Shown: piece by piece, positions 6,300 to 43,117 of the stretch
Numbering within the stretch: the first letter of the stretch is position 1
Layout of the letters: each line of letters begins with the position of its first letter
From: an uncultured Methanosarcinaceae archaeon
GTDB taxonomy: Archaea; Halobacteriota; Methanosarcinia; Methanosarcinales; Methanosarcinaceae
Assembly: GCA_963833425.1 (NCBI GenBank)
Contig: CAWHXP010000010.1
Location: 68,841 to 132,840, forward strand
DNA: 64,000 nucleotides
Reading direction: 5' to 3'
Made by a program: the position numbers and the translations under genes
Notes under the pieces: generated by a model
Told to the model about the DNA's origin: nothing
The model's input: the letters and a program-made list of their open reading frames with translations, nothing else
Database searches by the model: none

Positions 6300-7337
6300 T
6301 CATAGTACTAGTTTCCACTTGTGCATTTTTTTGTTTTGGGTGATTGCAACTCCACAAGGTCTGTTTTCTATACGCACCGTGGATTTAACAGTATTAGTAC
6401 CCGTATCAATTACAGAAACATCGCTACTCCCCAAGTTCGTCACATATAACTGTTTTTCATTTGAATCCACTGCAACTCCAAGAGGATAAGTTCCTATCTT
6501 CACCGTGGATGTAACTTTGTTTGTAGCAGTGTCAATTACAGAAACATTTTGGCTAAAGAAGTTAGTAACAAATACCTTCGTTCCATCTGGATCAACTGCA
6601 ATTCCCTCAGGGCCATTCCCTACCTCAATAGTGGATATAACTTCGTTTGTTTTTGCATCAATTACAGAAACAGTTCCTGGAATGTTGTGGCTGCCTGAAT
6701 TCGTGACGTATACTGTACCCCCATCCGGAGTGACTACAACTCCCGAGGGTTTTTGTCCTACATTTACAGTAGCTGTAATTTTATTTGTGCCTGTGTCAAT
6801 TATAGATACATTGTTGCTACCATAGTTTACCACATATACCTTTGTTCCTGCTGGGTTGACTGAAACTCCACGAGGCCCTACTCCTACATTCACAGTAGCT
6901 GTAACCTTGTTTGTGTTTGCATCGATCACAGATACATTTTTGTCGCCGGTGTTCGTTACATATACCTTTTCTCCATCAGGAGTGACTGCAATTCCTCTAG
7001 GATGGGATCCTACAGGCACATTGGCTATAATGGTGTTTGTAAATGTGTTAATTACAGAGATGACGTTGTCGAGGGGATTTGTAAAATATACCTTTGTTCC
7101 GCCAGGGTTGATTGCAACTTCAAGAGCAAAATGAGTAGTTTCTAAATTTACATTGGCTGTAATTTTGTTTGTAGCAGTGTCAATTACAGAGATATTGTTG
7201 CTGCCAGCGTTCGTAATATATGCAAATGGGACCGCGCCTGAGATACTCATCACCATTGAAAACACCATTACTGATATCCCTAAAATCTTTATGAATGTAT
7301 TTCCTTTGTGTATTTTATTCCATTTCATTTTATTCAT
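6300..7337 (-). CDS. YVTN-repeat beta-propeller surface protein
   Basis: Signal peptide plus seven YVTN..VSVIDT repeats. Confidence 0.92.
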   Translation of the reverse strand: MNKMKWNKIHKGNTFIKILGISVMVFSMVMSISGAVPFAYITNAGSNNISVIDTATNKITANVNLETTHFALEVAINPGGTKVYFTNPLDNVISVINTFTNTIIANVPVGSHPRGIAVTPDGEKVYVTNTGDKNVSVIDANTNKVTATVNVGVGPRGVSVNPAGTKVYVVNYGSNNVSIIDTGTNKITATVNVGQKPSGVVVTPDGGTVYVTNSGSHNIPGTVSVIDAKTNEVISTIEVGNGPEGIAVDPDGTKVFVTNFFSQNVSVIDTATNKVTSTVKIGTYPLGVAVDSNEKQLYVTNLGSSDVSVIDTGTNTVKSTVRIENRPCGVAITQNKKMHKWKLVL

Positions 7338-9190: not shown

Positions 9191-10177
9191 TCACACTCTC
9201 AGAGCCTGATTACTATCAATCCTGTTATACAACGCTTCCAAATTTTTCTGAAGCCTGTCAATTCCCTGTTTCCAGAGCATTTTATTGGATTTCAGAGATT
9301 CGCTCAGCTTCAAAGCTACGAGCTTTGCATAGTTTTGGGAAACTTTTTGATTGTTCCAGGAAAAGCCGAAAGCCATATCTGTTTTTTTGATACTGTATTT
9401 TTCGTGGATCAGGAATTCATAAAGTTCAGGAACACAATCTAGCTTTTTTTCGAAATTTACGGAAAAGTTTGTGGTAAGGTAAGCCAGATTTCGGAGACTA
9501 GACTGGACACCACAGCTTTCAGGACACAGTTTCTCCGAGTTTGCGAACTTGAGCATCTCTTTGAATTCAAGAAAAATATCAGTTTGCTCGAAACTGGATG
9601 GTAGAGTTTTTCCGAAGAAAATTAAGATATGGATGCATTCGTGAAAGAGAATTTTTGCAATCAGGAACTCGATTCTCTCCTGAAGGTTCCAGAACATTTC
9701 GACCAGTTCTTTTCCCCATAATTCATAGGGATTTATCAGGATAAGGGACCTGTAGATTATTTTGTTATTTTTTCTGGAAACGATCTTCTGTGGTTCGAAG
9801 GCCAAACCCGGCATATTACCAAAAAATTGTGCTTGAATAGCTAGATCCCAGAAGTATTCCCATTTTCTGGAACTTACACATTTTACTCTATAATATTTCC
9901 CATCAAAGTGAACTTTTTTTATTAACTGGTATATATCATCATTTTGTTCTTTAATAAGAATTTTTATCATGGCCTCTCGATAAATGTTTAGGTCAAGAAA
10001 GAAAAACCCTGGATAAGAAACTGAGCAGTTTAGACCAGGATAAGAAACAGGAAAGAAGAATTTAGTAATAGGGGAAGTTCCCAATGATGCTGGTAACGAC
10101 TTACCATGTTCCACATGTACCTGCAAACTGTTATTTTGCTCCAGCAAAGCCTTTTTTGTTCTAATTTCTTGCAACAA
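9191..10177 (-). CDS. Hypothetical protein with HEXXH motif (true start probably ATG ~9970)
   Basis: Long ORF; LFHECIHILI. Confidence 0.55.
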   Translation of the reverse strand: MLQEIRTKKALLEQNNSLQVHVEHGKSLPASLGTSPITKFFFPVSYPGLNCSVSYPGFFFLDLNIYREAMIKILIKEQNDDIYQLIKKVHFDGKYYRVKCVSSRKWEYFWDLAIQAQFFGNMPGLAFEPQKIVSRKNNKIIYRSLILINPYELWGKELVEMFWNLQERIEFLIAKILFHECIHILIFFGKTLPSSFEQTDIFLEFKEMLKFANSEKLCPESCGVQSSLRNLAYLTTNFSVNFEKKLDCVPELYEFLIHEKYSIKKTDMAFGFSWNNQKVSQNYAKLVALKLSESLKSNKMLWKQGIDRLQKNLEALYNRIDSNQALRV

Positions 10178-11033
10178 GAACCCATCCTTTGCAATTCATC
10201 TTATTTTCTTATATTATGGAGGTTAGTATTACTAAATTTTATTTTTGTATTGAATTATGATAAAATATTTTACAATATTTATACTTATTCATAAAAATAT
10301 AAAAATTAGTATTAACAGCTTCGATGATAAAAAGGAACTGAAATTTTTTGAAAAAAATAGAAAATAAATGCAAATAATTAGTGTGAGAACTAGAATCTAA
10401 TCCATTTGTTCAACTAAAATCACAAAAATTTTTCGGCGGCTTCCTTCAATTACGTTTTTTCCAGAGATATTTCCCAATACTTTTTTGCAGTTATTGTTAC
10501 ATATTCTATTCTCTTTAATCATACAAACTGCTATAACTTTTTTACAGTACTCTGAACTCAAAACAAAAATCTAGTAAGTTAATTCCAAAGCCGACTTTTC
10601 AAAGGCGTTCTTGAAATATTTGTTTTTTCAGAATATCAATCAGTTACCTTTTTGAATACATTAAAGCTATATTTTGGTATTATTTATATAAAATTATTTA
10701 TCAGTTTTGTGTGTAATAAATATCAAATAGGAAATAATTTATCTTAAAAAAACTAACATTAATATGAATCAAAAGCTAAGAAAACAATGTTTAGCAAGGA
10801 AAGGAACAAAATATGCCTAAGGAAGTTGCGAAAACAAAAATCTTTGGCTTAAAAAATACGCGTATACAAAGTTTGAAAATAAAAGATATAACGCCAAAAC
10901 CATTCATCATAAAAAACCTTGCGCGAAAGGAAGTTACCTTCTATAGAATCAAATCATAACAATAAATAAAAATTGATTCTAAATTTACATCAAATTTGCA
11001 ATACTACCAAAAAAGGCTCTAAAACTCTAACCT

Positions 11034-11930
11034 TTGGAAAATAGTGAGCTTACCCACCCAAAAGAAAAACCTGGATACAAAAACATTCTGAAAACCAAAC
11101 TAAGAAAGCAGGAAAAAGTTTTGCAAGGAAAGGAGCCGGTAATACCTCTCTTTTTAAGATTTCTTGGAGGAATTTGCATAGACTGCAAGAAAGTTATTGC
11201 CAACTACTGGAATATAAGGTCTTCAACATACACAAACGGAGTAAATGGTTTTGATGAAGAAGAACGCCATGTTTGGAAACAAACCTTTGAAAATTCTCTG
11301 CCTGCCAATGAGCATTTGAAAATACTGGACGTTGGGACAGGCGCTGGTTTTCTAGCCCTTCTTTTTGCTGAGATGGGACATGAGGTAACAGGTATAGATC
11401 TTTCTGCAGGCATGCTCGAGAAAGCAAAGGATAATGCAGAGAATATGGAACTTAAAATTGATTTTTTTCATGGTGACGCTGAAAATCTTTCATTTGAGGA
11501 TAATTCCTTCGACTTGGTTGTAAGCAAATTCTTGCTCTGGACTCTCCCAAAACCTTCTTGTGCGGTTAGGGAATGGAAGAGAGTCCTGAAACCGAACGGC
11601 AGGGTTTTTGCCATAGATGGAGATTGGTTTGATCCCAGACCAAATAGACGGATAAAAAGAAAGATTTCCGAGTGGATAGGAAGAATTGTGAAAAAGAACC
11701 ATAATTCTTTGGTTTTCAAAAATTATTATGGATCAATCCGAGATTTTTTGCCTCTCTATGAGAAAATAAGTCCGGAAAATGGTTCATTTCTTTTTTCGCA
11801 AAACGGACTTGTAAACACTGCAGTCAATCCTCTTCTGGAGGTACAAAAATTTAAAAAAAATAGGCAATCATTCACGCAGAGGTTTATTGGGAATAATTCT
11901 ATTTTTCTGATATCTGGAGAAAAAAGGTAA
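11034..11930 (+). CDS. Class I SAM-dependent methyltransferase (UbiE-like); the probable native start at 11178 reads ATA
   Basis: ILDVGTGAG motif I, GIDLS, GDAENL, FDLVVS, RVLKPNG; GGAGG RBS just before ATA-GAC-TGC. Confidence 0.88.
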   Translation: MENSELTHPKEKPGYKNILKTKLRKQEKVLQGKEPVIPLFLRFLGGICIDCKKVIANYWNIRSSTYTNGVNGFDEEERHVWKQTFENSLPANEHLKILDVGTGAGFLALLFAEMGHEVTGIDLSAGMLEKAKDNAENMELKIDFFHGDAENLSFEDNSFDLVVSKFLLWTLPKPSCAVREWKRVLKPNGRVFAIDGDWFDPRPNRRIKRKISEWIGRIVKKNHNSLVFKNYYGSIRDFLPLYEKISPENGSFLFSQNGLVNTAVNPLLEVQKFKKNRQSFTQRFIGNNSIFLISGEKR

Positions 11931-12204
11931 AAAAACTATTTAGTACCTATATTTTTTTGGGTTGGATCCTCCCTGAAAATGCCGCAACATACCTTAATTC
12001 ACGCTTTTAACAAATGTCTTTTTCCCATTTTCATACCATTCTGAAAGTTATTGCTAATCCTTCTTACGTTTGTTATCATATTTTTGATTTGTCAGATACT
12101 AATATTATATTTATACATACTTTTCTATAAAACTCACAAACTTTAAATACGGGTTCCCTACAAAAAAGAATTATTAAAACTAGGCTATTATGAATTCAAG
12201 ATTT

Positions 12205-12328
12205 TGCAGATGTACACAAATGTATAATTTGTTTGCCTAGTTGGCCACTATCATTCGTTAAAAGTTAGATTAAATTTTAAACTACCGCCATATTGAGAAA
12301 AGGGATAGCATTTTTGTGTACATCTGCA
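12205..12328. mobile_element. 124-bp MITE-like element with perfect 16-bp TIR TGCAGATGTACACAAA; diverged inverted copy at 17205-17333
   Basis: TIRs read directly; interiors align (aatctaacttttaa, aacaaattatacat). Confidence 0.7.
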
Positions 12329-12365
12329 GGAAATGAATATAATATAATATATATTATATTTAACT

Positions 12366-13265
12366 GTGGGGAATAGGGGATTAAACGGCATGAGCACTGC
12401 ACAGATAACTGAAAATATTAATTTCCCAGCCTTATTTCAAGCTTCAGAGAAGCAACTGCAGCTATATGATATAAGATCCAAGTTGTTACTTTTTTGTAGT
12501 AAAATTGCAGAGTTTGATTTGACCAAAATGACAGATTCAAATCTGGCTGGACTCTACAAGGTTTTTGCAGAATTGGATGCACTAGGAAATCTGGATGTTG
12601 ACAACGAAATGTGTGAGTGTATTCTTCAAGACCCAGTGATTCAGTCCTTACTTCCTACAATCCATTCCAGCTACAGCAGCTTTTTCAGCTTGCATGAGAC
12701 ACATCTTGCACAAAAAATACTTAACTATGAGAACCCCTGGAAAATGTTGCAATCTTTCCCCCTATATCCGAAATACGAAAATCTGATCAGTGTACATTTC
12801 CATAATTCCCCAAAAATTGAAGTGCTGGCCTTTGTAGGTTGTGGTCCCATTCCTGTTACTCTGTTACTTTTCAGTAAATTATATGGCATCCTCTGCATCG
12901 GCATAGATCAAGATCCCGGAGCAGCAGCACTGGCCAAAAGGTGTGTAAAGCACTTTGGCCTCGAAAAAAAAATCAGTATTATTTGGGGGGATGAAACATC
13001 ACTTTCAAAAATTGAATGGAATTCTGTACTCATAGCAGGGCTTGCTGAACCAAAACTACGAATTTTCCAGAACCTCCATAAAATAATTAAAAAAAAATCC
13101 GAGTCAAAAAAACCTATTTCTGTATGCTATCGTAACTATACCGGCATGAGGCAGTTGCTCTACTGGCCCATCCAGCCGAAGTGGACCCGAGGTTTTCGGA
13201 AAATAAATGAAATTTATCCCACAGGTGGAGTAAACAACACTCTAGTCTTCCTGGAGTGTGAATAA
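12366..13265 (+). CDS. Nicotianamine synthase family protein 1 (likely start ATG 12390)
   Basis: FPLYPKYENL, AFVGCGPIPVT, IAGLAEPK, YRNYTGMRQLLY, VNNTLVF motifs typical of archaeal NAS. Confidence 0.9.
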   Translation: MGNRGLNGMSTAQITENINFPALFQASEKQLQLYDIRSKLLLFCSKIAEFDLTKMTDSNLAGLYKVFAELDALGNLDVDNEMCECILQDPVIQSLLPTIHSSYSSFFSLHETHLAQKILNYENPWKMLQSFPLYPKYENLISVHFHNSPKIEVLAFVGCGPIPVTLLLFSKLYGILCIGIDQDPGAAALAKRCVKHFGLEKKISIIWGDETSLSKIEWNSVLIAGLAEPKLRIFQNLHKIIKKKSESKKPISVCYRNYTGMRQLLYWPIQPKWTRGFRKINEIYPTGGVNNTLVFLECE

Positions 13266-14079
13266 TATCTTACAAGTCGAAGCTTCGTACTTAATTTCAG
13301 AACTTCGACAGATTCATGCTCTGATAAAGGATATTGGAGAAGAAGAAGTTTTGGAGAGCTCCTCGGTAGAACTGCAGGTAGCTTTTAAGAGGTTGGATGA
13401 ACTAGCTGCTCTTGAACTGGATGAAGAATCCACAGAGATGATCCTCAAAAGGCTGGAGCTTGAACCTTTGCTTATTTCAATTTCTAACTTTCGGTTCTCA
13501 TATAATCTGAAGGTTGAAATCGAAAAAGCAAAAAGCATCCTTGAAAGCCAGGACCCGTGGAAAACCCTCAAGAATTTTACGTTTTATACAAACTATCTGC
13601 AGCTCGCTAGGACTGAATACATAGGTTCCAAACTAAAACCAGAAGACTGCGTTGTGTTTCTTGGCAGTGGTCCTCTACCACTGAGTTTGATAATGCTCTG
13701 TCACGAGCATGGTGTTCAAGGAATTGGAATTGAGCAAGATGGACAAAGAGCAAGTCTCTCACGGGAAATAATTTCCAAACTCAAGCTTTCAGAAAAAATT
13801 AGAATAATTGAAGGAAATCACATCTGTCTTCCTCTCAAGGATAGATGTGAACTTTACATGATCGCTGCCCAAGCCGAACCCAAAAAAGAGATATTCGAGC
13901 ACCTAGCAAAAGTTCTGCCCAAAGGAAGTAAAATCTCCTATCGTCTATATGAAAAAGGCCTTAGAAGAATACTGGATGGCGGTATTCTCTTCGAACTACC
14001 GGCAGAATTTGAAGAATATCTTAGAGTTCAGCCAGAACCTCCGGTTAATAATACAGTTGTGTTTTTAGAAAAAAATTAG
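13258..14079 (+). CDS. Nicotianamine synthase family protein 2
   Basis: FTFYTNYLQLARTE, VFLGSGPLPLS, IAAQAEPK, SYRLYEKGLR, VNNTVVF; overlaps NAS1 stop by 8 nt. Confidence 0.9.
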   Translation: MNNILQVEASYLISELRQIHALIKDIGEEEVLESSSVELQVAFKRLDELAALELDEESTEMILKRLELEPLLISISNFRFSYNLKVEIEKAKSILESQDPWKTLKNFTFYTNYLQLARTEYIGSKLKPEDCVVFLGSGPLPLSLIMLCHEHGVQGIGIEQDGQRASLSREIISKLKLSEKIRIIEGNHICLPLKDRCELYMIAAQAEPKKEIFEHLAKVLPKGSKISYRLYEKGLRRILDGGILFELPAEFEEYLRVQPEPPVNNTVVFLEKN

Positions 14080-14235
14080 TAGCCCAGCAACCTCTATTTA
14101 CCTTTTAGTTTAGCTGGGAATTTATTCCACTCCTCTTGCCAACAATAGCTAAGATCGAGCAGTTGATAGGTCGCACGACAACGTGCAGCATCTAGATTTT
14201 CTGTAATTTTGGATATTGCCCGGTCAGTTACAACC

Positions 14236-15075
14236 TTAATTCTCATGCTCATGAATGTGCTCCTCATCAAGGGCAGGGTGCAGATGCTCATGCACAAGCA
14301 TGCCGTGAATGTGCATGTGCTCATGGATCAAATTTGCGGAAAGAAGAAGCTCCCGGTTATCAAGTATCTTTTCTGCTCTATCATCCACCACAATCCTATG
14401 GTCTTCGCCCATGACTATGACTCTTTTGCTAATCTGCTCGACTGTTTCAAGGTCATGAGTTGCAGTAATTATTGTCTTTCCCGCAGTCCCAAGATCTTGT
14501 AATAGCTCTATAAGCCATAGCTGGGTTCTCGGGTCCAATCCTGCAGTAGGTTCATCCAACAAAAGGACATCGGGGTTATTAGCCAGAACGGAAGCTATGC
14601 AGACTTTTTTCTTCTCCCCCCCGCTTAGAGTGTGAGGAGATCGATCTTTAAGCTTAGTGATTTCTATCATCTCCATTACTTCCAAAACTCTGGTCCTGAC
14701 ATCCTCAGGATTCATGTCGAGCTGAAGGGGTCCAAATGCAATCTCATCAAAGACTGTGGGCGAGAAGAGCTGCACATCAGAGTTCTGAAAGACAAATCCT
14801 ATTTTTTTTCGGAAATAGGACCTGAATTCATTATCTTTAATAGTATCGAAAACCTCTTCTACTATCTTATTGTCAAAGGCATAGAATTCTCCCAAAGTAG
14901 GATATATAAGCCCGTCTAACATAGCCAACAAAGTAGATTTGCCACAACCATTTGCGCCAATTATAGAAATCCGCTCACCAGGCTCCACTTTGAAGTTAAT
15001 ATCATTTAAGGCATTTATTTTTCCTACATATGAATATGAAACATTCCTTAAGTCAAAGATCGTTTCCATATCCAT
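14236..15075 (-). CDS. nikO: ECF transporter ATPase NikO/CbiO with His-rich tail
   Basis: Walker A GANGCGKS, LSGGEKK, LLLDEPTAGLD; C-terminal HEHMHIH..HEHLH. Confidence 0.9.
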   Translation of the reverse strand: MDMETIFDLRNVSYSYVGKINALNDINFKVEPGERISIIGANGCGKSTLLAMLDGLIYPTLGEFYAFDNKIVEEVFDTIKDNEFRSYFRKKIGFVFQNSDVQLFSPTVFDEIAFGPLQLDMNPEDVRTRVLEVMEMIEITKLKDRSPHTLSGGEKKKVCIASVLANNPDVLLLDEPTAGLDPRTQLWLIELLQDLGTAGKTIITATHDLETVEQISKRVIVMGEDHRIVVDDRAEKILDNRELLLSANLIHEHMHIHGMLVHEHLHPALDEEHIHEHEN

Positions 15076-15076
15076 G

Positions 15077-16013
15077 TCATCTGATAATGTTCTGAGAAAT
15101 CAACACCAAGGCTATGCTCAGAGATATTACTATTGCCCCTGAAACATAATCTCGGATACGCATTTTAAATTCTTGCATTGTTTTAACATCCCCATTGTAG
15201 CTCCTGGATTTCATGGCTTTATATACCTCTTCACTCATTCCCAGAGATCTTATCAGCACGTATCCTATTCGTCCCCCTACCCACTTTTGCTCCTCAAACA
15301 TGCTTCTATATTTTATTGTCCTAGCTTTCTTTGCAATGTACATATCGCGAACCAGATTAGTTAGAACGAAAATATACCTGTAGGTCATACCCAACGTGAA
15401 AACATAGATTTTTGGAACGCCAATACTACGAAAGGACTTAAAGAGCATTTGCTGAGGTGTAGTCAGAAAAAGTAGAACTGTGGCAGAAACACATGTTGCA
15501 ACACGCATTGTAAATATTACAGCGGCATTGACGCCCTGTCTGGTGATATAGATATACTCTCCGGCAGTGAAAATGGCCCCAAGTGAGAGTCAGGACCAAG
15601 GTATGCTAACCTAATTAGAGAATCGCCTGGTAAGAAGATATTGAAGATCATGGGTATAGCGATGATGCCTGAAAAGATGGGGATGAAAAGCCAGACCCGC
15701 TTGATGAAAAACAGGGCATCTATTTTACTGAGATACGAAAACAACAGCGTAAGCATATAAACAAAGATCAGTAATTTCAGATCTCTGATCAAACTCGTTG
15801 CGAATATCAAAATCAGGATAGAAACTAGCTTAATCCTGGAATCCAAGCTTTGAAGCAGGCCTTTTCGCCTTGAATATACTTCTGAAAAAAAGTGGTCTCC
15901 ATGAACTCGACAACTTCCTCAATTGTTCTACCTATGAAGCTCTTTTTACCATGATATACAGCAGAGCACCTACAAGGTTCTACCTTCACTTCTTTCATCC
16001 AGTTCGGGATCAT
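15077..16013 (-). pseudogene. nikQ: ECF T component NikQ/CbiQ split by two frameshifts
   Basis: Three consecutive ORFs (15825-16013, 15517-15846, 15077-15508) with MTYRYIF and AMKSRSY motifs. Confidence 0.85.
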
Positions 16014-16050
16014 TTGCCTCCAGTAAAAATAAAATGAGCTATTAGTTTGG

Positions 16051-16160
16051 TTAATCGTTGAAGCCTCTCTGACACAAAGCCTATTTTATCATTAAGCTCC
16101 TATTGTGCAGATTTTTTATCTGTAGTGCCTGCATTTGCAGCAGGCACTAGAGCAAGTAAC
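16051..16160 (-). pseudogene. Remnant of a nikN/PDGLE-type gene upstream of nikQ
   Basis: Translates to ..AGTT..*ELNDKIGFVSERLQRL, versus ELKDKIGFVPHGLEEL in 39449-39772. Confidence 0.55.
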
Positions 16161-16572
16161 TGAAGCCTTTCAGACTAGAGAGTTCCCATTTTCCTTTTTG
16201 CATAAGTCCAAATTGAGATTATGATTCTCCAGAATACGATAGATATATGTGACCCTAAAAACTGAAATCTTTATTTTGATTGAATAATTCTTCATGTTAT
16301 GGAAAATGCGTCTTATGTGAAGAATAATAACACTCTCAAAACAAGCTTGTTGAGAGAGATTTCCACAAATAATTCAGCTTCTTCAAACATCTAATACGGT
16401 TCTTATGAATTATTCTTGAAGAATATGGGAATTGTGCACTTGAGAAACGAAATAAAATATTACCGAAGCTGTTGTCTAAACATCTATTTTAGACAATTTA
16501 AGGTTAAATGATATTGATTTTTCAGTTCAACTGCATAAGTTCTAGAATATTCTTATAATACCAGATTGTTAA

Positions 16573-16600
16573 GTATTACATAGGCATCATTTTATATTAC
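16573..16600. promoter_or_regulatory. Putative NikR operator GTATTAC-N14-ATATTAC; similar sites at 5819-5846, 10226-10253, 38013-38040, 38341-38368, and an N15 inverted form at 19111-19139
   Basis: Spaced half-sites upstream of the nik remnants, nikM and nikR; AT-rich background lowers certainty. Confidence 0.4.
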
Positions 16601-17516
16601 TTTGTTGGATAAATTTTAATTTTATTATTAAGTATTCCACCTTACAGAGATCCTAGAAACGCTTTGTATTTGGAATCGAAATGTAAATTATAACGACACG
16701 TGAGCCCATAAAAAAGAGAATTTTACAGATATTGGATTAAAAAAATTCTCAAAGATAGAGTAGTAATATAAGATTAAAAAAGTAACCGAGAATACAGATC
16801 TTGGACAATTGAAATCGATGTTATAGTTAAGCTCCTTGATTTTTCGGTATTATCATGTGATTTCCCCACACAAATATTACAATGCTGCATGTTACAACAG
16901 AATTACTCAATAGGTAGGCACTATTGCAAATTTGATGTAAACTCAAAGTTAGATTTTGTTTGCTGCGTGTAATTAGGTTTTCTGAAATGGAACTTTTTTG
17001 TTCAAGAACTTATTGAGATTTGTGCTTTTACAGAAAATGAAACAATTTGATGTAATTTCTTCTCGTTTGTCCCGGTTTAGAGCTAGCCATATGTCTATGT
17101 TTTTCAGAACCGATTATCTGGTCAAGTTTGTTGATTCTATAAAATATCCTAAAACATTAGCAGTTTTCAGAATAAATGAGGTGAAAGATTTCATTGAGCC
17201 AACCCTCTGCAGATGTGCGCAAGAATACCATATATTTTTCAGATATGACAGTAACTTAAAAAATAATCTAACTTTTAATAAATAATAGTAACCAAATAGA
17301 CGAACAAATTATACATCGTATACATCTGTAGAGTATAGGAGATGGGAAATTAATCTCCTTTAGCAGGTAATTATTTAAAAAAATAATAAATATCTATACA
17401 TTAGTATTACTCTATACTACATATTTTACAAAAAGTATTTAACAAATAGCAATTATACATTTATATATAGCCAAATGAATTTAAGGTTCTAAACTTTTGG
17501 CTGAAAAATATGACAG

Positions 17517-17738
17517 ATGGTGAAAGATATGGAAGAAAAAGAAATGCACATCCACGTACATAAGCCCGATGAAAAAAAGCTTGAGGAAGCACAAGTACAT
17601 ATACACTTACATGTCCACGAATATAAACATGAACATGAGCATGAGCACGAAGAAGAGACTCACACACAAGAGCATCCGCATAAAATCGAACATGAACACG
17701 AGCATGAGCACGGACACGAGCATGAGTACAAAAAATAA
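17517..17738 (+). CDS. Small His/Glu-rich (HE)n putative nickel-binding protein
   Basis: MHIHVH, HIHLHVHE, HEHEHEH tracts; GGTGA RBS before ATG 17529. Confidence 0.75.
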   Translation: MVKDMEEKEMHIHVHKPDEKKLEEAQVHIHLHVHEYKHEHEHEHEEETHTQEHPHKIEHEHEHEHGHEHEYKK

Positions 17739-18654
17739 GGATGGATCAAGATAACAATCTAGCTAGTTATGAGTAATTGATGTACTGGCAAAGAAATAAT
17801 CATTTTTCAGGATGTCGATAGAGCAGAGACAAAAATTTTGACCAATCGAGAAAATTTCATTTCATCTACAACCTAGATGAATATAATTTTCTCGATCTTT
17901 ATTCTTGGGATCCATTCGCTTACTAGTCTTAGTTTTCAAATAATTTGGAAATAGTGCTCATAAGCGGAAAAATAAAGCATAAGCAGAGATGCCATAAATA
18001 TTATCATTTAAATCAATAGCTACCTAATTTTATTGATTTCTTACTATAAACACTTAAGTCTTAAATTGAATAAAGGAGTGCCAAAATGTTTCAGTTGATA
18101 GTCCCAAGTTTAGATAAAATTTTGGCTTTACTTGCATTAACTTATGCAGTAATTTGGCGTTGTAGAAACTTTCTCTAAAGTAACATTCTTAGGTTAAATT
18201 TGAATCTAGAAACTTGCCATTGTAAATTTAATTAAAAATGTTCAGTTTGTTTCAACCGTTCCAACCTGCTGTAATTTCTAATGATCAATTATAGTAATGA
18301 GACTAAATAGTTCAGAAGACACTACAAGAAAGATATTTGTATTCACATTGGACATGGAGCCATTTTGGATATCACATTAAACAATTCTATTATCTTCAAT
18401 CATTTTTATAATTGCAACTTAATCTATAAAAAATAGCTTTCTGAACTAAAGAGATTCAAAACTACTTTAGTATATATGTAAAGATTTCTAAAAGGTTATT
18501 ATTGAATTAAAAAATTCTGTCTACTATATTGAAGCTATGTTTGAATCTACTACACCCAAAAATTAAATTGAAAAAATCAAGAGAAACTTCATCCACCTAT
18601 CAAGTTTGACTTCCTTTGATACCAGATACTAATTTATATCATTCCACTAAAGAA

Positions 18655-19077
18655 TCACACATTTTCGTTTGATGGTACAGTTGTGAGTTTTGAGAATTTT
18701 ACCCCTTTTAGGGCCATTATAGATTCGTCAACCTCTTTAATTCTTTCACCATCTCCATCCAAAACAATTACTTCAAAACAGTTTTCATGATCGATGTGTA
18801 TATGCACGGATGACTTTATTAGGTGAGAGTATTGATGCTGGATATCTGCAAGGGCGTTTGAGAGACCTCTTTTATTGTGGTCATAAACAACAGCAATGGT
18901 TCCGATACGATGGCCTTTAATGCCACCCATCCACTCGTAATAGGAAATATAACTCCTGATGGCATCTCTTATGCCTTCTGAACGGGAAGAATAGCCTCTT
19001 TTTTTGGTAATCTCATCAAATTTACTCAAAAGGTTGTCAGGAAGAGAAACCCCTATCCTCATAAGTTCTGTTTCCAT
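18655..19077 (-). CDS. nikR: Nickel-responsive regulator NikR
   Basis: [33 protein letters not shown] Ni site. Confidence 0.96.
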
Positions 19078-19714
19078 CGTATCACCAAATTATTTGGATT
19101 TATCCATTTAATAATACTTTATTATAACATAAGTATTACTATATATGTTTTATCCACTTAATAACCACATAAAATAATTAGTTATGATTCCATACTAGAA
19201 ATCAGTACTTCATAAGCCCCGAAAGATATTTTTAATCTGTTAAAGTTTTGAAAACTTCAATATTTAGCAGTTATTTATAGTTCAAAACGTCTTCAATACC
19301 ATCTCTCAGTTTTTTTGTTTCGCCTTTTGGATGGAGAGCGTAGAACGTCTTGATGCATGAAAAACCTAAAAATTTTGGTATTTTACAGATGATATGCCAG
19401 AAAAGACTTTGGAAATATTGAAATTTATCGATGGCCATGTTTTTTTAACTAGTTATCCGAAATATTTACAATCCTAAGCCAACAAAGGTTTGTTAATATG
19501 CATTCACTAAAGCAGGATTTATTCAAAATTATATAATCATAAAAAGAAGTCGATTTAGTCCTAAAAAGAAAGAAATTAAGGGTTTTAAATTTATTTTTAC
19601 GACCTATTGCCGGTAGACCTTTTTGGGGTAGTTTTGCATAAGGATCGCAAAATAATTTAGACCATTATTTATATTCCATATATTTTTTCCAGTTGTTTAT
19701 ATCATTTTCTGGAA

Positions 19715-20026
19715 CTAGGGTTCGACAATTGGATTAAAGTGTCCTGACTCTGTACCAGCAGGTACCTCACCCAAGTAGGGGAAACTGGTTGCAGGAGAAG
19801 GACAAGATACAACCCAGGATCCTGCGCCATTATAAACATACTGACAAGGACCAGACCAGTTCCATCCCCAGCCAAAGCCGTCACCCCAGCTTCCTCCAAA
19901 GCCCCAAGCTCCACCACGGTACCAACCTGCACGTGCACTAACTGACATACCTGTCAATGATACTAAAAACAGAGCTGCTAAATAAATAGACAGTACCTTT
20001 TTCATTTTACTGGATGATTGTTTCAA
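19715..20026 (-). CDS. Small secreted Gly/Trp-rich peptide (shared-leader family)
   Basis: Leader KQSSSKMKKVLSI..SVSA shared with three other ORFs in the window. Confidence 0.7.
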   Translation of the reverse strand: MKQSSSKMKKVLSIYLAALFLVSLTGMSVSARAGWYRGGAWGFGGSWGDGFGWGWNWSGPCQYVYNGAGSWVVSCPSPATSFPYLGEVPAGTESGHFNPIVEP

Positions 20027-20389: not shown

Positions 20390-21092
20390 TATAAAAGGTG
20401 AAACAAATGTTAAAACAAACATCTAGTAGAATGAAAAAGGTACTGTCTATTTCTTTAGCAGTTCTTTTTGTAATATCGGTGACATCAGTGGCAGCTAGTG
20501 CACACTATGGTGGCTGGGGCGGCTATGGCTGGGGTCCCGGATGGGGCTATGGTACTGGTTGTAGGTGGGTGGGTGGTGATAATTGGCTTTGCCCTGGATT
20601 CAATTTTACATCGGGAATGCCATACACTATTCAAAATTCAACACCTGCAGCTCCAGCTCCTGCGGCTCCGGATCTAGGTCCAGATGCAGGACTAGCTATA
20701 TTTCCAAAAAAAGCATCCACATAGATAATTTCTTCAAGTATGTGATTAAAACAATGTAAATGATGTTACCCTTAGTCATTGTATAGGATTTTGATAAGCA
20801 AGGCATAAAACATTTTAAAATTGACAATAGTTTGAGCTTATTACATTTTTAATCATTCCTGGATAACATCACAAGCTTATCAACAAATAACGTAATTTGT
20901 GGAGTTCAAACATTGTCATAAAATATTAATATATTAAAATTTTGCATTTGATTTAGATAGGTTTCTTTGATGGTTTAGCTGAAGTTCTGTTATATCTGAT
21001 GAGCTCTTTATCATTTTCTTTCACTTCAAAAAAGCAGGATGCTGAAGTAGTAGTTATACTAACTAAATTTTTGTTATTTTATTCTTATTTAT
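20390..21092. repeat. ~700-bp segment duplicated in inverted orientation at ~37135-37850; its 3' part also recurs at ~44760-44980
   Basis: Peptide gene plus downstream sequence (gtttagctgaagttctgttatatctgatgagctct) match in reverse complement. Confidence 0.85.
20398..20724 (+). CDS. Small secreted Gly/Trp-rich peptide (shared-leader family; likely start ATG 20407)
   Basis: Signal peptide ending ASA-H; near-identical paralog at 37507-37836. Confidence 0.75.
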   Translation: MKQMLKQTSSRMKKVLSISLAVLFVISVTSVAASAHYGGWGGYGWGPGWGYGTGCRWVGGDNWLCPGFNFTSGMPYTIQNSTPAAPAPAAPDLGPDAGLAIFPKKAST

Positions 21093-21518: not shown

Positions 21519-22890
21519 TTATAATTGTAGCTTAAGAATTTCAGAGCTGTCATCGGTATCCTCAACCCACTTGCAGCTATCTTCCCAGTTGAACACTCCA
21601 ACAGCGAACTCTATTCCGCTCATTTTCACGTATTCCCGGATTTTGTTCAGCGCATGATCTACCATACCACCAGCTGTAAGGATAAGGCAACGCTTTCCAC
21701 AAAGAGCCATTAGTATAGATTTGTCTATAACTCCTGAGGTGACATCCAGGTGGATTCCATCCTGCTCTGCGAGATTTTTACTTTTATTGCCCATTCTACC
21801 TACAAAAACCATTTTCCCTTCTTCCAAAAGTTGTCGTACCTCTCCCAGAGAATAATTAACAGTATCATAAACCAAAATTCCTCCGGCTTTAATCCCTTTA
21901 CGCTTTACTCCAACAATGGCTTTTCCATCGGGATGGAAATGGAGAACTGTAGCGTTAATGGCTTCGTAAGGAGATTGAGTTGCATATTCTCCATACATAA
22001 TTCCAAGGTTTAGACTATCTCCTTCTTTGACTTTCGGAGGAACATCTACCCACATCAGGTCCAGAATTTTTAGGGTACTTACTATTTCTGGTATAGTTTT
22101 TGGGGAGTGTTTGCCGTATGCAAGCCCTCTTCTTTCGAGTTCATGATACATTTCAAGAGTAGTTGGTTGGCAGATGTCTACTTTTTGAAGAAACTCCTGC
22201 TTTTTGAAGACCTCTACAGCAGGTGTTCCCTGGCCTATAAGTTTGCTGCTGGACATGATGTACACATAGTCAGATCAGCGGTACGCCAGATCCACATCAT
22301 GAGTGGAGATGATGATAGTGGTTCCGAATTGGTTAAATTCGTCAATCAGATCCATTATTTCGTCCGCACCCATCGGATCAAGATTCGAGAGAGGTTCATC
22401 CAAAATGATTACTTCGGGTTCCATTGCCATAATCCCAGCAATTGCAACTCTTTTTTTCTGGCCTCCGCTGAGATGATGTGGAGGCTTGTCCTGCAAGTGG
22501 GAAAGCCCAACTTGCTCAAGAGAACTCCTGTACGCAGACATCGACCCTTTCTTTTGAATAACCCAAGTTTGCAGGCCCAAAAGCTACATCCTGGTACACA
22601 GTTGGAGCAAATATCTGGTCATCAGAATTTTGGAAAAGTATTCCTATGGATTTTCGGATTTCTCTGAGGGATTTTGAATCATATTTAACTGAAAATCCAT
22701 GAAAATGAACCTCACCTTCATCAGGTTTGAAGGTTCCATTCAGAAGTAGAAACAGTGTGGACTTTCCTGAACCATTTGGCCCTACAAAAGCGACCTTTTT
22801 CCCTTTTTTGATTTCAATATTCAGACCCTGGCAAGCTACAGTCCCGTCCGGATAGGTGTATTTAAGGTTCTTAGTCTCAAGAATGATCAT
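21519..22890 (-). pseudogene. cbiO: CbiO ATPase with C-terminal extension, broken by a frameshift (~22530) and an in-frame TGA (22275-22277)
   Basis: GPNGSGKS in 22516-22890, LSGGQKK/LDEP in 22275-22580, then [12 protein letters not shown] continuing in frame into 21519-22265. Confidence 0.85.
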
Positions 22891-22901
22891 AACCTGTTAC
22901 C

Positions 22902-23684
22902 TCAAAAAATGGATATATTTTTTGTAAAATAAAAGAGTGAAAGAGTCGAAATGAAATAAACAGAAGTTAAAAGCAATTCTATCGACTTTATAGGCTTGTG
23001 AACTTCGAAAATCGTCATTTTCCCGTTATAACATCTGGAATTCATGGCAATGAAGAGCTTCTCTCCCTGTTCCCACGATCTTATAAAAAGTGTGCTTGTA
23101 AGCATGCCAATAGAATTAATGGAACGCCTGAAATTCGAGTATCCTAATCTTATTGTCTGAGCATACATTATGGAAATGGCAATTTCGAGAAAGACGAAGA
23201 TATAACGATAAATTAGCATGGTAAGTTCTATCAGAGTATCTGGTAGTCCGGAAGTTTTGAAAACAGCAAAGAGTTCGATCATAGGGGTTGTCAGTGCAAG
23301 GAAGTAAAGGCAACACATCCCACTTATAGCCCTTGACAAGACCAGAAGTGCAAGCTCAAGTCCATCTGCCTTTATTGAAAGAGGATATCCTATAAGTTTG
23401 AAGGATAATAGGTCCTGTCCCGAGCCTGAAAAAAAAGCAATTATAAGAACACCAACGGCAGCAAAGCTCATAGGAGCTAGCAAAAGTTTGAAATAGAGTA
23501 TAGGAGACACCCTCCCAAAAACAATTATCGTAAAACTCATACAGAGGGCTATGAATACAGGAGTGATAGGGGATGTACATGAAACTCCTATAATTAATCC
23601 AAAGAAAGCTATTGCTAGTTTCAACCAGTTGTTTCGGTGCCTTAGAGGACTCATAAGAGCATGATCGTCAAGAATATTGGTCAT
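22902..23684 (-). CDS. cbiQ: Cobalt ECF T component CbiQ
   Basis: Membrane protein with LIYRYIF, QTIRLGY, AMNSRCY motifs. Confidence 0.9.
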   Translation of the reverse strand: MTNILDDHALMSPLRHRNNWLKLAIAFFGLIIGVSCTSPITPVFIALCMSFTIIVFGRVSPILYFKLLLAPMSFAAVGVLIIAFFSGSGQDLLSFKLIGYPLSIKADGLELALLVLSRAISGMCCLYFLALTTPMIELFAVFKTSGLPDTLIELTMLIYRYIFVFLEIAISIMYAQTIRLGYSNFRRSINSIGMLTSTLFIRSWEQGEKLFIAMNSRCYNGKMTIFEVHKPIKSIELLLTSVYFISTLSLFYFTKNISIF

Positions 23685-23881
23685 TGGGGCACCTGCTAGA
23701 TAAGTAGATCGAAACTAAAGAATTCTTCGTTATTTCAAGTGAGTTCTCGCCAACTAAAAATTAAAGAGGATTTCGATAAATCTCTGATTTCAATGAATTA
23801 ATTATATGCTCTTTACAAACAATCAAGCAAATTTGAGGGTTTTTTAGAACCCTCTAAAGGTTAAAAATTAAGGATTACCTA

Positions 23882-24226
23882 TCATGTTTGGATTTTTTCG
23901 TCCCTTTGCAGTTTTTTATCCTTTTGAATACCGAAATCGCTTTCAAAACTGTTTTTTGCTCTGTAATACCCGAGGAAGTAACCGATAATTATTGCACCGG
24001 TAGCTGCCTGAAGGCCAAAAAGCAGGCTTTCTATTTCATCACTCGGAGGTTTCCAGATAGGTTTTGCAATGGGTTTGTAAGCCCCATCTGTAATTTGATC
24101 AATAACACCTTCGGGTTTGTCATCAGCTCCACCATATTCGGCATGTGTAGTAGAAGACATATAAAAGAACTGAGCTGCAAAAATCAGAATTATAGCAATC
24201 ACGATAAATTCAAGTTTCCTGCTCAT
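23882..24226 (-). CDS. cbiN: Cobalt transport protein CbiN
   Basis: [32 protein letters not shown]. Confidence 0.92.
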
Positions 24227-24942
24227 GCAGCAAGCCCCCTGATTTTGCGAACTAAAGATTCGGTCAATACGTTCATTTCAACAAGGATATCACTCTTGAC
24301 CTCAATCACGTACTTGAAGAGTAGGGCACTAACTGCGCCTTCGATGATTGCTAGGGGTATCTGAGTAATTGCGAAGACTTCAAGAAATTTGCTGAATGAA
24401 CTGAAGAAACCCACATAATTTAAGATTCCTCCTGCAGGAAATGCCAAAGCAAGTTGTGTAGAAGTTGTAATATAAGTAGCCCAGTCGCCGAAAGCTGCAG
24501 CCAGAAAGACAATAAAATAAAAGTTGATTTTGGCTTTCATTCCGGCCTTATAAATTAGGTATGACACCACCGGACCCACGATGCCCATGGAGAATACATT
24601 TGCTCCAAGGGTCGTAAGCCCTCCATGGGCTAGGAAGAGAGCTTGGAAGATTAGTACAATAGTCCCAAGAACTGCAGTAATCGCAGGCCCAAAAATGATT
24701 GCTCCTACCCCTGTTCCTGTAGGGTGAGAACAGCTTCCTGTAACCGAGGGCATTTTTAGGGAGGAAAGCACGAATATAAATGCACCTGCGACCGCAAGGA
24801 TAGGTAATATCTCGCGTTTTTTGTTCACTAATTTATTCATTTTGTAAACACCATATGCGATCACTGGTATTGATACTGCAAACCATACTATACACCAAAA
24901 CACCGGTAAAAAGCCTTCCATTATATGCATAAAGATCACCAT
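24223..24942 (-). CDS. cbiM: Cobalt ECF S component CbiM (native start MHIMEG)
   Basis: [28 protein letters not shown]. Confidence 0.95.
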
Positions 24943-25232: not shown

Positions 25233-26088
25233 GGTTCCGTTGCAAAAAATCCTTTCTAATGATACAATAGAATAAAAAGAAAATCAAAGATAGTAATATG
25301 CTATTTAATTCCTTTAAATGGAAACATTATGAAGGGGAAATCATCCTATTAAATGTAAGATGGTACTTAAAATATGCATTAAGTTATAGAAATTTAAAAG
25401 AAATGATGGCAGAAAGGGGAGTAAAAGTAGACCATACAACAATCATGAGATGGGTACATCAATATTCCCCTGAAATAGAAAAGAAGATAAGAAGACATTT
25501 AAGGCTAACAAACTATTCGTGGAGAGTTGATGAAACCTATATCAAAGTAAAAGGTAAATGGGACTATTTTTACCGAGCAGTTGACTCAAATGGGGATACA
25601 ATTGATTTCATGTTAAGTTCAAAACGAGATAGAAAAGCAGCAAAGAGATTCTTTAAGAAAGCTTTAAGTTCTAATCATAATCAAATTCCAAGAGAAACAA
25701 CCGTTGATAAGAATCCAGCTTATCCACCTGCTATAGATGAACTGAAAAATGATAAAATATTACATAAAAACGTAGGAATTAGACAAATCAAGTATTTGAA
25801 TAACATTATAGAACAAGATCATAGATCTATAAAGCGAATCGTTAATTCAATGTTAGGATTTCAGTCTTTTCGATCTGCTAATAAGACCTTAAAAGGAATT
25901 GAAGCTATGAATATGATTAAAAAAAGACAAGTAAATGATCTAAATTACTCTGTTCTTAATGAAGTCAAATACATTAATCAATTGTTTGGTATAGTTTTAT
26001 AATGTTAGTACATTTTCCTTGAATATTTTGATTTTTATTTATTACTTATAGATTTACATGCTTATTTTGAAGTTTTTGCAACGGAACC
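25233..26088 (+). mobile_element. Complete IS6-family element (856 bp)
   Basis: Perfect 16-bp TIR GGTTCCGTTGCAAAAA / TTTTTGCAACGGAACC around the transposase. Confidence 0.95.
25298..26002 (+). CDS. IS6-family DDE transposase
   Basis: WRVDETYIKVKGKW, TVDK, YLNNIIEQDHR. Confidence 0.95.
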   Translation: MLFNSFKWKHYEGEIILLNVRWYLKYALSYRNLKEMMAERGVKVDHTTIMRWVHQYSPEIEKKIRRHLRLTNYSWRVDETYIKVKGKWDYFYRAVDSNGDTIDFMLSSKRDRKAAKRFFKKALSSNHNQIPRETTVDKNPAYPPAIDELKNDKILHKNVGIRQIKYLNNIIEQDHRSIKRIVNSMLGFQSFRSANKTLKGIEAMNMIKKRQVNDLNYSVLNEVKYINQLFGIVL

Positions 26089-39439: not shown

Positions 39440-39448
39440 GGTGAGAAT

Positions 39449-40903: not shown

Positions 40904-43117
<2,214 letters not shown>

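Follow-up and report, generated by a model that had tools for sequence, protein, structure and literature searches.

In a 64,000-nucleotide stretch of DNA from an uncultured Methanosarcinaceae archaeon (GenBank assembly GCA_963833425.1, contig CAWHXP010000010.1, positions 68,841 to 132,840; this whole stretch is called the window below), we analysed a cassette that appears to consist of a gene for an S-adenosylmethionine (SAM)-dependent methyltransferase, MT, followed by a bicistronic operon of two genes of the nicotianamine synthase (NAS) family, NAS1 and NAS2. Comparison with related loci supports the view that NAS1 and NAS2 form a conserved, non-redundant pair from two anciently separated clades. 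It also supports a persistent linkage of this family to nickel/cobalt transporters of the energy-coupling factor (ECF) type, to NikR-like boxes and, in eight loci of anaerobic methanotrophic (ANME) archaea, to a CbiX-type chelatase. The cassette probably makes an undescribed small molecule that binds nickel or cobalt. The reading that we favour, with slightly more confidence than doubt, is a two-NAS pathway with optional methylation, whose product, a nicotianamine-like chelator, would serve in the handling of nickel or cobalt.

In this proposed pathway, both NAS proteins would use the chemistry of their family, in which the 3-amino-3-carboxypropyl group of SAM is transferred to an amine. NAS1 and NAS2 would accept different substrates and act either sequentially or as a hetero-oligomer, converting an amino-acid starter and SAM into a nicotianamine- or thermonicotianamine-like polyaminocarboxylate. 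MT, where present, would methylate the product or an intermediate, and the product would serve nickel handling, whether by acquiring the metal or by buffering and delivering it inside the cell. By analogy with nicotianamine in plants, a secreted nickelophore seems no more likely than an intracellular buffer or chaperone.

A preliminary description of this DNA had noted two divergent, translationally coupled NAS genes preceded by a co-oriented SAM methyltransferase, and all of these genes are present. Both NAS proteins score above the cut-off of the Pfam family PF03059 (Table 1), and they share 32% identity over 256 residues (E 2e-35). The genes overlap by 8 nucleotides, the GTG start of NAS2 lying 8 nucleotides before the end of the NAS1 TAA, with a GGAG immediately 5′. 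The longest open reading frame (ORF) for NAS1 begins at a GTG at 12366 (12366-13265, forward strand); the true start is likely the ATG at 12390, which gives a protein of 291 amino acids, compared with 290 in its relatives. MT lies on the same strand ahead of the pair and matches Methyltransf_11.

We predict that NAS1 and NAS2 are both active enzymes, because each retains the catalytic Glu and Tyr, the SAM-binding glycine motif and the fold of MtNAS, the thermonicotianamine synthase of Methanothermobacter thermautotrophicus (MTH675; structures 3FPE, 3FPF, 3FPG and 3FPJ). MtNAS is the best solved relative of both (3FPE; E 1.2e-36 for NAS1, 5.8e-31 for NAS2). CntL, the NAS-like enzyme of the staphylopine-type pathways, is a far weaker match among PDB entries (E 1.8e-03 and 1e-05, respectively), and the CntL equivalog model of NCBIfam, NF033601, gives only 28.5 bits for NAS1 and 34.8 bits for NAS2 with a cut-off of 350. 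By profile score, both proteins are thus members of PF03059 and not CntL equivalogs. AlphaFold models agree with this placement. The NAS1 model, built on an alignment of 20 sequences, has a mean predicted local distance difference test (pLDDT) score of 86.4 and template-modelling (TM) scores of 0.78/0.86 to chain A of 3FPE, and the NAS2 model, built on 15 sequences, has a mean pLDDT of 88.0 and TM scores of 0.81/0.84; TM scores to CntL are 0.61-0.73 for the two models. The models fit the two-domain fold of the family, an N-terminal helical and a C-terminal Rossmann domain, as in MtNAS and CntL.

According to the published description of MtNAS, its residues Glu81 and Tyr107 are catalytic and deprotonate the acceptor amine (PMC10491745), and the corresponding E77 and Y106 of the Arabidopsis enzyme AtNAS1 are reported to be essential (PMC10248798). 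Counted from alignments, Glu81 corresponds to the Glu in the NAS1 sequence HETH and the NAS2 sequence VEIE, and Tyr107 to the Tyr in PKY (NAS1) and TNY (NAS2). These residues, together with the glycine motif, are invariant in the sequences aligned for modelling (E103, Y129 and G150/G152/P155 of the 291-residue NAS1 in 20 sequences; E87, Y113 and G136/G138/P139 of NAS2 in 15). In the larger set of 118 sequences described below, the catalytic Glu and Tyr, the GxG...P motif and the motifs AEPK, R..Y..G and NNT are each at least 90% conserved in both clades. At seven positions of this set, each clade has its own fixed residue. Three of these positions are at -1, -5 and -8 from the catalytic Glu, in the helix just ahead of it, where the NAS1 clade has Y/F/H and the NAS2 clade R/Y/L. 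Differences so close to the catalytic Glu would fit different acceptor substrates. The -8 position corresponds to C69 of AtNAS1, which a published model places near the reaction chamber and whose replacement by alanine left activity unaffected in the account given there (PMC10248798).

To survey the pair, one genome per species was scanned, and the best 80 of 88 relatives gave 72 distinct loci, designated here by L numbers. A hidden Markov model search of the ORFs of these loci and of the window found 122 NAS pieces. After 12 pieces covering fewer than 200 profile positions had been dropped and 8 further bacterial proteins added, 118 rows entered a quick maximum-likelihood tree, which is drawn with a midpoint root for display only. 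The tree has a deep split into two clades, whose branches measure 1.08 and 1.26 changes per column and both have a Shimodaira-Hasegawa-like approximate likelihood-ratio support of 100. The NAS1 clade has 29 rows (18 Methanosarcina-type, 2 Methanothrix and 9 bacterial), and the NAS2 clade has 89 (24 Methanosarcina-type, 3 from Methanothrix or Tritonobacter, and 62 ANME-type). The ANME-type rows fall in turn into a subclade A of 20 and a subclade B of 42.

The synteny survey called for in the preliminary description shows a regular tandem. Of 25 Methanosarcina-type loci, the window included, 22 have NAS1 immediately 5′ of NAS2, and the same 8-nucleotide overlap is called in 15 of these 22. The exceptions are a contig that begins 8 nucleotides before NAS2 (L005), a truncated NAS2 without NAS1 in a metagenome-assembled genome of M. 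barkeri (L026, 7894-8577), and a locus in which an MT fragment abuts or is fused to the last third of NAS2 (L072, 9692-10279). NAS1 is split into two ORFs in five of the tandem loci (L001, L011, L015, L016 and L068). Tandems are also found in Methanothrix (L061, again with an 8-nucleotide overlap, and L067) and in one bacterium, Candidatus Tritonobacter lacicola, where the overlap is 4 nucleotides and the pair lies 3′ of glycine-cleavage genes (L064). Other bacterial NAS2-like proteins come from Desulfospira, Desulfonema and Desulfolithobacter. Four further pairs of NAS1-like and NAS2-like proteins outside the Methanosarcina type come from sources with equal longest-contig sizes (4976, 2169, 2505 and 1933), which suggests that the members of each pair share a contig; Deltaproteobacteria are named by the sources of the 4976 pair. 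Each of the 16 ANME-type loci that hold at least two full NAS genes has members of both subclades A and B.

The cassette also occurs in cultured strains. Methanosarcina sp. WWM596 has adjacent accessions (AKB17243.1 and AKB17242.1), Methanosarcina sp. T3, Mfa9 and Ant1 are further carriers, and NAS2 is present in M. siciliae strains. Public records name these proteins only ‘nicotianamine synthase family protein’, ‘methyltransferase’ or ‘hypothetical protein’. Two side observations concern individual loci. The 2.7-kb contig of L005 is labelled as a deltaproteobacterial metagenome-assembled genome; its NAS2 is 71% identical to that of the window and nests in the Methanosarcina clade, and the contig has probably been mis-binned. 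In L011 (13530-13923) and L014 (13300-13865), 3′ fragments of NAS2 beside a second cbiO look like decay products of the cassette.

The distribution of MT was determined by tblastn with the window protein, keeping hits of at least 35% identity and treating flanks as adequate if they extended at least 1.5 kb on both sides. Orthologues near NAS genes are 42-87% identical. Of the 25 Methanosarcina-type loci, 18 have MT no more than 1 kb from the NAS block (as a fragment in L016, L017 and L072); where flanks are adequate, the count is 16 of 20. With the distance widened to 5 kb, 16 of the 45 ANME-type loci have MT, as do 11 of the 21 whose flanks are adequate. The MT proteins of an ANME-1 locus (L036) and an ANME-2 locus (L024) show 43% identity over 252 and 249 residues, respectively, and match end to end, including the region beyond the Rossmann core. 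Co-conservation of MT with NAS, whose absence the preliminary description would have taken as refuting its proposal, is found across Methanosarcina, ANME-1 and ANME-2. The orientation of MT varies: it is on the same strand and 5′ of NAS in Methanosarcina and Methanogaster-type loci, and 3′ and convergent elsewhere.

The relatives of MT say little about the type of methylation. The best solved relative of MT is the carboxylate methyltransferase LahSB (6UAK, E 9e-19), followed by phosphoethanolamine N-methyltransferases. We found no specific family for it in NCBIfam, where all matches are generic and far below their cut-offs, and Atlas returned only generic class-I methyltransferase clusters. 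We therefore rejected an assignment of function from relatives, since generic matches do not separate N- from O-methylation. In the window, about 460 nucleotides lie between MT and the NAS1 ATG, and because this gap holds a T-run and a TATA-like element, MT is probably transcribed separately from NAS1-NAS2. Taken with its distribution, MT is probably an accessory tailoring enzyme. In seven ANME-type loci (L023, L024, L030, L035, L045, L047 and L059), a radical-SAM gene, which encodes 394 amino acids in L024, lies beside MT within about 1 kb of NAS, and this enzyme may perform a further tailoring step.

These data bear on a simpler explanation, namely that NAS1 and NAS2 work independently, each making its own chelator or both making the same thermonicotianamine-like compound, with an unrelated MT and a pairing that reflects co-regulation or dosage. 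One NAS can suffice, because MtNAS alone is described as making both transfers that lead to thermonicotianamine (PMC10491745). Moreover, subclade B stands alone in 24 ANME-type loci and subclade A in 4, many of these loci being on short contigs. Where flanks are adequate, 4 of 20 loci of the Methanosarcina type and 10 of 21 of the ANME type have no MT, which indicates that MT is not essential to the core chemistry, and its probable status as a separate transcription unit in the window is also what independence would predict. Against independent action, the pairing is strictly heterotypic in the Methanosarcina-type tandems and in every ANME-type locus with several NAS genes, and the stop/start overlap has been retained in most tandem loci and in Methanothrix L061. 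The NAS1 and NAS2 proteins of Methanothrix and Tritonobacter lie near the base of both clades, as would be expected if the pair moves as a unit, and MT orthologues track NAS through three orders in varied orientations. Some of the ANME-type genomes with only subclade B at the locus do hold a subclade A copy on another contig, and at least three genomes with single-subclade loci hold NAS copies on other contigs (L033/L044, L041/L060 and L028/L042). We thus regard independent action as unlikely. Because the pair is strictly heterotypic, co-translated, co-transferred and active-looking, the simplest reading is that both NAS enzymes are needed for one product.

The genes around the cassette point to metal handling. 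All ORFs of 80 or more amino acids in the 72 loci, together with those in the window's first 30 kb, were clustered. After NAS itself, the most widespread neighbours are CbiO (39 loci), CbiQ (35), CbiM (31) and MT (29), followed by a CarboxypepD_reg-like protein (19), DUF4198 (18) and CbiX (8). Sixteen of 24 Methanosarcina-type loci and 20 of 45 of the ANME type have at least one ECF component no further than 5 kb from NAS, and within the same distance DUF4198 is found in 18 and CbiX in 8 of the 45 ANME-type loci. The nikR gene, encoding the nickel-responsive regulator, is within 5 kb in 3 of 24 Methanosarcina-type loci, and at 7.3 kb in L009.

The arrangement is clearest in L014, from Methanosarcina sp. 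T3, where cbiN-cbiM on the reverse strand is followed by MT-NAS1-NAS2 on the forward strand and cbiQ-cbiO on the reverse strand, and then by a NAS2 fragment, a second reverse-strand set of cbiO-cbiQ-cbiM and a His-rich gene. This gene order places the cassette inside a transporter locus, and it likewise lies between cbiOQ and cbiMN in L008. In the ANME-1 locus L036, DUF4198-cbiM-CPDreg-cbiQ-cbiO-NAS are on one strand and a convergent MT follows. ANME-2 loci have NAS divergent from DUF4198 across a gap of about 290 nucleotides, and in L034 and L039 the CbiX gene lies between the two NAS genes. As a separate observation, the DUF4198/NAS region of ANME-2 contains, near the DUF4198 start, a conserved inverted repeat, GAGATA-N10-12-TATCTC (L021-L025, L045, L047, L049, L052, L054, L059 and L063). 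This repeat differs from the Methanosarcina box described next and is a candidate operator.

We scanned the 25 Methanosarcina-type sequences for TAWTAC-GTAWTA with a spacing of N14-16 and at most one mismatch. Boxes of the form TAWTAC-N14/15-GTAWTA number 34, compared with a mean of 12.2 in shuffled sequence. One box sequence, TATTACATATATACATTTTGGTATTA (TATTAC(A/T)TATATA..TTTTGGTATTA), recurs in 12 loci and in 10 of them lies within 300 nucleotides upstream of cbiM. A palindrome of related form precedes nikR in all four loci that have this gene (the window, L002, L006 and L009), with one variant arm in L002, and in the window it is a candidate autoregulatory NikR operator. In L011 and L015, a box of the cbiM type lies about 250 nucleotides upstream of MT in a divergent intergenic region, and shared control of MT and cbiM by one box is possible there. 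The box upstream of orf328, the gene divergent from MT in the window, also occurs in four other loci (L002, L010, L013 and L068).

The NAS1 promoter region has conserved elements of its own. An alignment of upstream regions shows a TATA-like element, CTTTATATA, and about 120 nucleotides further upstream a block, AAATGCCCTAACATTTTTATTT...CGTTAACAAT, which is palindromic (AAATGCC...ACATTT, followed by CGTTAACAAT). The exact core of the block occurs once per locus in 10 of the 72 loci, always 5′ of NAS1; it lies about 245 nucleotides upstream of NAS1 in L003, which lacks MT (6582-6601), and in the nine others. The aligned TATA-like element of the window would be the promoter element of NAS1-NAS2. 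Two candidates in this region were rejected. A NikR operator at the NAS promoter was discarded, as the strict nikR-palindrome pattern gives 12 matches in the window with 8.4 expected, none of them near MT or NAS1. An RNA element in the NAS1 leader was discarded as well, since an Rfam search at E up to 1 gave two weak, chance-level hits and RNAalifold found 0 of 6 pairs covarying.

Because Methanosarcina cassettes lie in or beside Cbi/NikMNQO-type operons with NikR-like boxes, and their ANME-1 and ANME-2 relatives beside DUF4198-CbiM-CbiQ-CbiO operons, sometimes with a CbiX-type chelatase, we infer a role in nickel handling, with cobalt less likely. The alternative is that the product handles cobalt for corrinoids instead of nickel, or handles both metals. 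Neighbouring CbiM and CbiN proteins score above the cut-offs of NCBIfam models named cobalt transporter (NF004902 with 350, NF005598 with 447 and NF004934 with 163 bits), and the small chelatases of the CbiX type have links to both cobalt and nickel. In addition, the cobalt- and B12-dependent proteome of Methanosarcina is described as unusually large (PMC2667541). However, the NCBIfam naming of this transporter family does not distinguish nickel from cobalt, nikR lies 1.4-7.3 kb from the cassette in four loci, and one type of box precedes both nikR and cbiM. The His-rich tail of CbiO and the small His-rich protein described below would also suit nickel better. A cobalt role, alone or shared, therefore appears quite improbable to us.

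The ANME loci raise one more alternative, in which the NAS-like enzymes make no free chelator and modify some other acceptor, for example the precursor of a tetrapyrrole cofactor or some further metabolite, while MT and the ANME-2 radical-SAM enzyme tailor the product further. The CbiX-type genes between or beside NAS in eight ANME loci and the radical-SAM gene adjoining MT could be taken in this sense, and SAM-dependent aminocarboxypropyl transfer is reported to be used in many unrelated contexts (PMC10491745). On the other hand, the characterized enzymes covered in the same account, the plant and fungal NAS, MtNAS and CntL, use amino-acid-type amines and produce chelator backbones (PMC10491745). 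The catalytic and substrate-chamber architecture is kept in NAS1 and NAS2, and besides CbiX we saw no genes of the F430 or corrinoid pathways among the conserved neighbours at the 72 loci. We consider modification of such an acceptor very unlikely.

Among known systems, MtNAS is the closest to NAS1 and NAS2. It shares with them the Pfam family, the fold (TM 0.78-0.86), the catalytic Glu and Tyr, the SAM motif, an archaeal origin and the absence of an accompanying CntM, the opine dehydrogenase that acts with CntL. It differs in sequence, with about 28-29% identity in structural alignment. MtNAS is described as one enzyme that performs two iterative transfers onto glutamate (PMC10491745), whereas the cassette encodes two diverged, co-translated paralogues. 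The co-conserved methyltransferase and the nickel/cobalt ECF transporter context are also new in comparison with MtNAS.

The opine-type Cnt systems, which make staphylopine, pseudopaline and yersinopine, combine CntL and CntM with a CntA-F importer and a CntE exporter. They resemble the cassette in that a NAS-like enzyme, CntL, is reported to start the pathway (PMC10491745), in that the fold is shared (TM 0.61-0.73), and in that a second enzyme completes the molecule. However, the second enzyme here would be another NAS, and the tailoring would be methylation. Cnt systems function in metal acquisition, and the cassette would be their counterpart in handling metal. The preliminary description had reported no CntM-like opine dehydrogenase, and we likewise found none among the Pfam-scanned ORFs of the window or the representatives of conserved neighbour clusters at the 72 loci. 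No histidine racemase (CntK) or Opp-type importer was seen in the window ORFs or the conserved neighbour clusters, and no CntE-like exporter or CntA-F-like binding-protein-dependent importer was found in the window. By its gene content, the locus is not an opine system of the Cnt type.

Plant and fungal NAS enzymes belong to the same family and have the same catalytic residues as NAS1 and NAS2 (E77 and Y106 in the AtNAS1 study, PMC10248798). The plant product is an intracellular metal chelator and thus a precedent for a non-secreted role. In contrast to the cassette, one plant or fungal enzyme makes three transfers and closes an azetidine ring, and plant NAS paralogues are close relatives, unlike the 32%-identical NAS1 and NAS2. 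The tailoring enzymes of the mugineic-acid pathway are an aminotransferase, a reductase and dioxygenases, with no methyltransferase among them. Finally, the cassette is surrounded by homologues of nikR, cbiO, cbiQ and cbiM and by candidate operators, as in NikR-regulated Nik/CbiMNQO systems, and methanogen NikMNQO systems have been predicted to be under NikR control (PMC10617489, citing Rodionov 2006). The difference is that the transporter copy adjoining NAS2 in the window is decayed. In the literature searched, we found no published link between a NAS-type cassette and Nik/CbiMNQO transporters. Full-text searches found no paper on NAS in Methanosarcina and, judged by titles and the beginnings of abstracts, none on NAS in ANME. 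No published description of paired NAS genes in methanogens turned up either, mostly by title and abstract start, a scope that does not establish priority.

Several observations weigh against the two-NAS pathway for a metal chelator. The ECF operon flanking the cassette in the window is broken or decayed. In a degenerate scan of positions 10100-12400, the only NikR-like box to appear was the one at 10227-10252, with none near the start of MT or at the NAS1 promoter; the block conserved at that promoter is unlike these boxes in type. The TAWTAC-N14/15-GTAWTA box would be a NikR operator by its position, and the metal stands between nickel and cobalt because NCBIfam names the CbiM and CbiN proteins cobalt transporters. 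No conserved exporter was found near NAS among the 72 loci; the only candidates for export are a MATE/MOP-like transporter (L003, L004, L012, L026 and L062) and a MacB-type ABC system (L061). Importers of the Cbi/NikMNQO-type ECF class take up free ions and are not known to take up metallophore complexes. Synteny counts across the loci are not phylogenetically independent, and the single-subclade ANME-type loci and the loci that lack MT, counted above, belong here as well. The nickelophore pathway of the preliminary description thus stands in part: the conserved, non-redundant pair, the co-conserved MT, the linkage to nickel/cobalt genes and the lack of CntM speak for it, while the decayed operon, the missing box at the NAS1 promoter and the incomplete distribution of MT do not. 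A more specific and more tentative version, which we find rather doubtful, is a two-module line in which one NAS primes, the other extends and MT caps. Its product would be a new methylated nickelophore or nickel chaperone that feeds Nik-type ECF importers or a CbiX/CfbA-type F430 chelatase in Methanosarcina, Methanothrix, ANME-1, ANME-2 and some sulfate-reducing bacteria.

The features of the window are collected in Table 1.

Table 1. Genes and sequence elements in and around the MT-NAS1-NAS2 cassette of the window
Feature	Position	Strand	Basis and remarks
orf328, HECIH (HExxH-type) motif	9191-10177	-	conserved, found in 8 loci; divergent from MT
NikR-like box TATTAC-N14-GTATTG	10227-10252		one mismatch; upstream of orf328
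MT, class-I SAM-dependent methyltransferase	11034-11930	+	Pfam Methyltransf_11, E 2.9e-28
Degenerate copy of conserved block (consensus AAATGCCCTAACATTTTTATTT...CGTTAACAAT)	11976-12016		from 18 aligned upstream sequences
TATA-like element AAACTTTAAATA, presumed part of the promoter of NAS1-NAS2	12138-12150	+	aligned with conserved AAAnCTTTATATA in 18 upstream regions
NAS1, clade 1 NAS-family aminocarboxypropyl transferase	12390-13265	+	PF03059, 72.7 bits (cut-off 27.1); likely start
NAS2, clade 2 NAS-family aminocarboxypropyl transferase	13258-14079	+	PF03059, 106.7 bits (cut-off 27.1)
cbiO/nikO, ECF-transporter ATPase, intact	14236-15075	-	ABC_tran, E 2.2e-32; His-rich C-terminal tail
cbiQ/nikQ, ECF T component, two frameshifts	15077-16013	-	three frames by tblastn
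cbiM (S component) remnant	16139-16261	-	tblastn with L014 CbiM-PDGLE: residues 15-55 only, 56% identity, ~40 codons
NikR-like box TATTAC-N14-ATATTA	16574-16599		one mismatch; relic cbiM operon promoter; resembles TATTACATATATACATTTTGGTATTA
Two NikR-like boxes upstream of the His-rich gene	17384-17409, 17415-17440		one mismatch each
His-rich 73-residue protein, HxH/EHEH repeats	17517-17738	+	ORF and translation
nikR, nickel-responsive ribbon-helix-helix regulator	18655-19077	-	NikR_C, E 9.2e-32; RHH_1, E 1e-09
Perfect palindrome TAATAC-N15-GTATTA (candidate operator)	19112-19138		between TATA-like element and nikR start

The preliminary description had placed nikQ and nikO (cbiQ and cbiO here) convergent with the NAS genes. 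This holds for cbiO, which is intact and convergent with NAS2; cbiQ, by contrast, is broken by two frameshifts, and with cbiM reduced to a remnant the Nik/CbiMNQO set next to NAS2 is incomplete. Complete copies are present in L014 and L003. The window CbiO scores 227 bits against the NCBIfam model ECF_ATPase_2, under its cut-off of 330, and its His-rich tail is also kept in L014. Compared with the intact 311-residue gene of L009 and L014, both versions of which match CbiQ, the window cbiQ lies in three frames (15077-15508, which holds the C-terminal piece, 15517-15846 and 15825-16013). One lesion, adjoining a T7 run, is the loss of 1 nucleotide between 15892 and 15891; the other is a 2-nucleotide insertion near 15555, inside a TA repeat. 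The gene is either a pseudogene or the site of assembly errors. L009 is the closest locus to the window, with DNA 86-92% identical over aligned blocks. Two other transporter genes of the window are similarly affected: the cbiO of a second cbiMNQO set (22516-24942) is split by a frameshift (split region 22122-22890), and a CbiM-PDGLE fusion gene (38707-39769) is likewise frameshift-split. The three split nickel/cobalt transporter genes could reflect either decay of redundant transporters or assembly indel errors.

A His-rich protein and nikR had also been noted nearby, and both are present where they had been placed. The His-rich protein is conserved in L009 (88%) and L014 (76%), has no family match in Pfam or NCBIfam, and is a candidate nickel-binding or storage protein. 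NikR matches the NCBIfam model NF002169 with 229.5 bits (cut-off 111). As for orf328, it has no family match in Pfam or NCBIfam and is an uncertain member of the system, possibly a nickel-regulated protein not described before. An identity from Atlas was rejected, as the score of 1838 is below the guide value of 2300 and a metallopeptidase-toxin family makes up 12% of one cluster, which we treat as a lead only.

Some other features of the window lie outside these subjects. Just past nikR are two divergent genes for paralogous small proteins of 103 and 108 amino acids (19715-20026, reverse strand, and 20398-20724, forward strand), which have a signal-peptide-like N-terminus, a Gly/Trp-rich core and no Pfam family. 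Traces of mobile elements are located between the nickel genes and the remainder of the window: an IS240-type DDE transposase (25298-26002, forward), a Prim-Pol fragment (30069-30413, reverse) and a tyrosine integrase (33666-34883, reverse). A catalase-peroxidase of 736 amino acids (40907-43117, forward; Pfam peroxidase in two stretches) stands in DNA of 46-47.5% G+C, compared with about 33% elsewhere in the window, which suggests that it was horizontally acquired. An HD-CE domain protein (47202-48812, reverse) and a TIR-plus-metallophosphatase protein (55590-57041, reverse) are both possibly defence-related. Finally, a match to archaeal small RNA 41, a Methanosarcina small RNA family (sRNA41, RF02905), lies at 958-1074 on the reverse strand (73.2 bits; gathering score 45).

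Nickel is needed by methanogens and by anaerobic methane oxidisers for methyl-coenzyme M reductase, through its cofactor F430, for hydrogenases and for carbon monoxide dehydrogenase/acetyl-CoA synthase. The one characterized archaeal NAS is presented by its structure and its co-purified product in the part of the literature account that deals with it, with no biological role given there (PMC10491745). Compared with that enzyme, the obligate-looking pairing of diverged NAS proteins, the co-conserved methyltransferase and the embedding in nickel/cobalt transporter loci are new. If our favoured reading is true, an MT-NAS-NAS cassette tied to nickel/cobalt transporters would give archaeal NAS a role that can be tested, because the cassette is present in cultured strains. 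It would represent a third route to nicotianamine-type chelators, beside the iterative single NAS and the combination of CntL and CntM, and it would add a small-molecule layer to the trace-metal economy of methane cycling.

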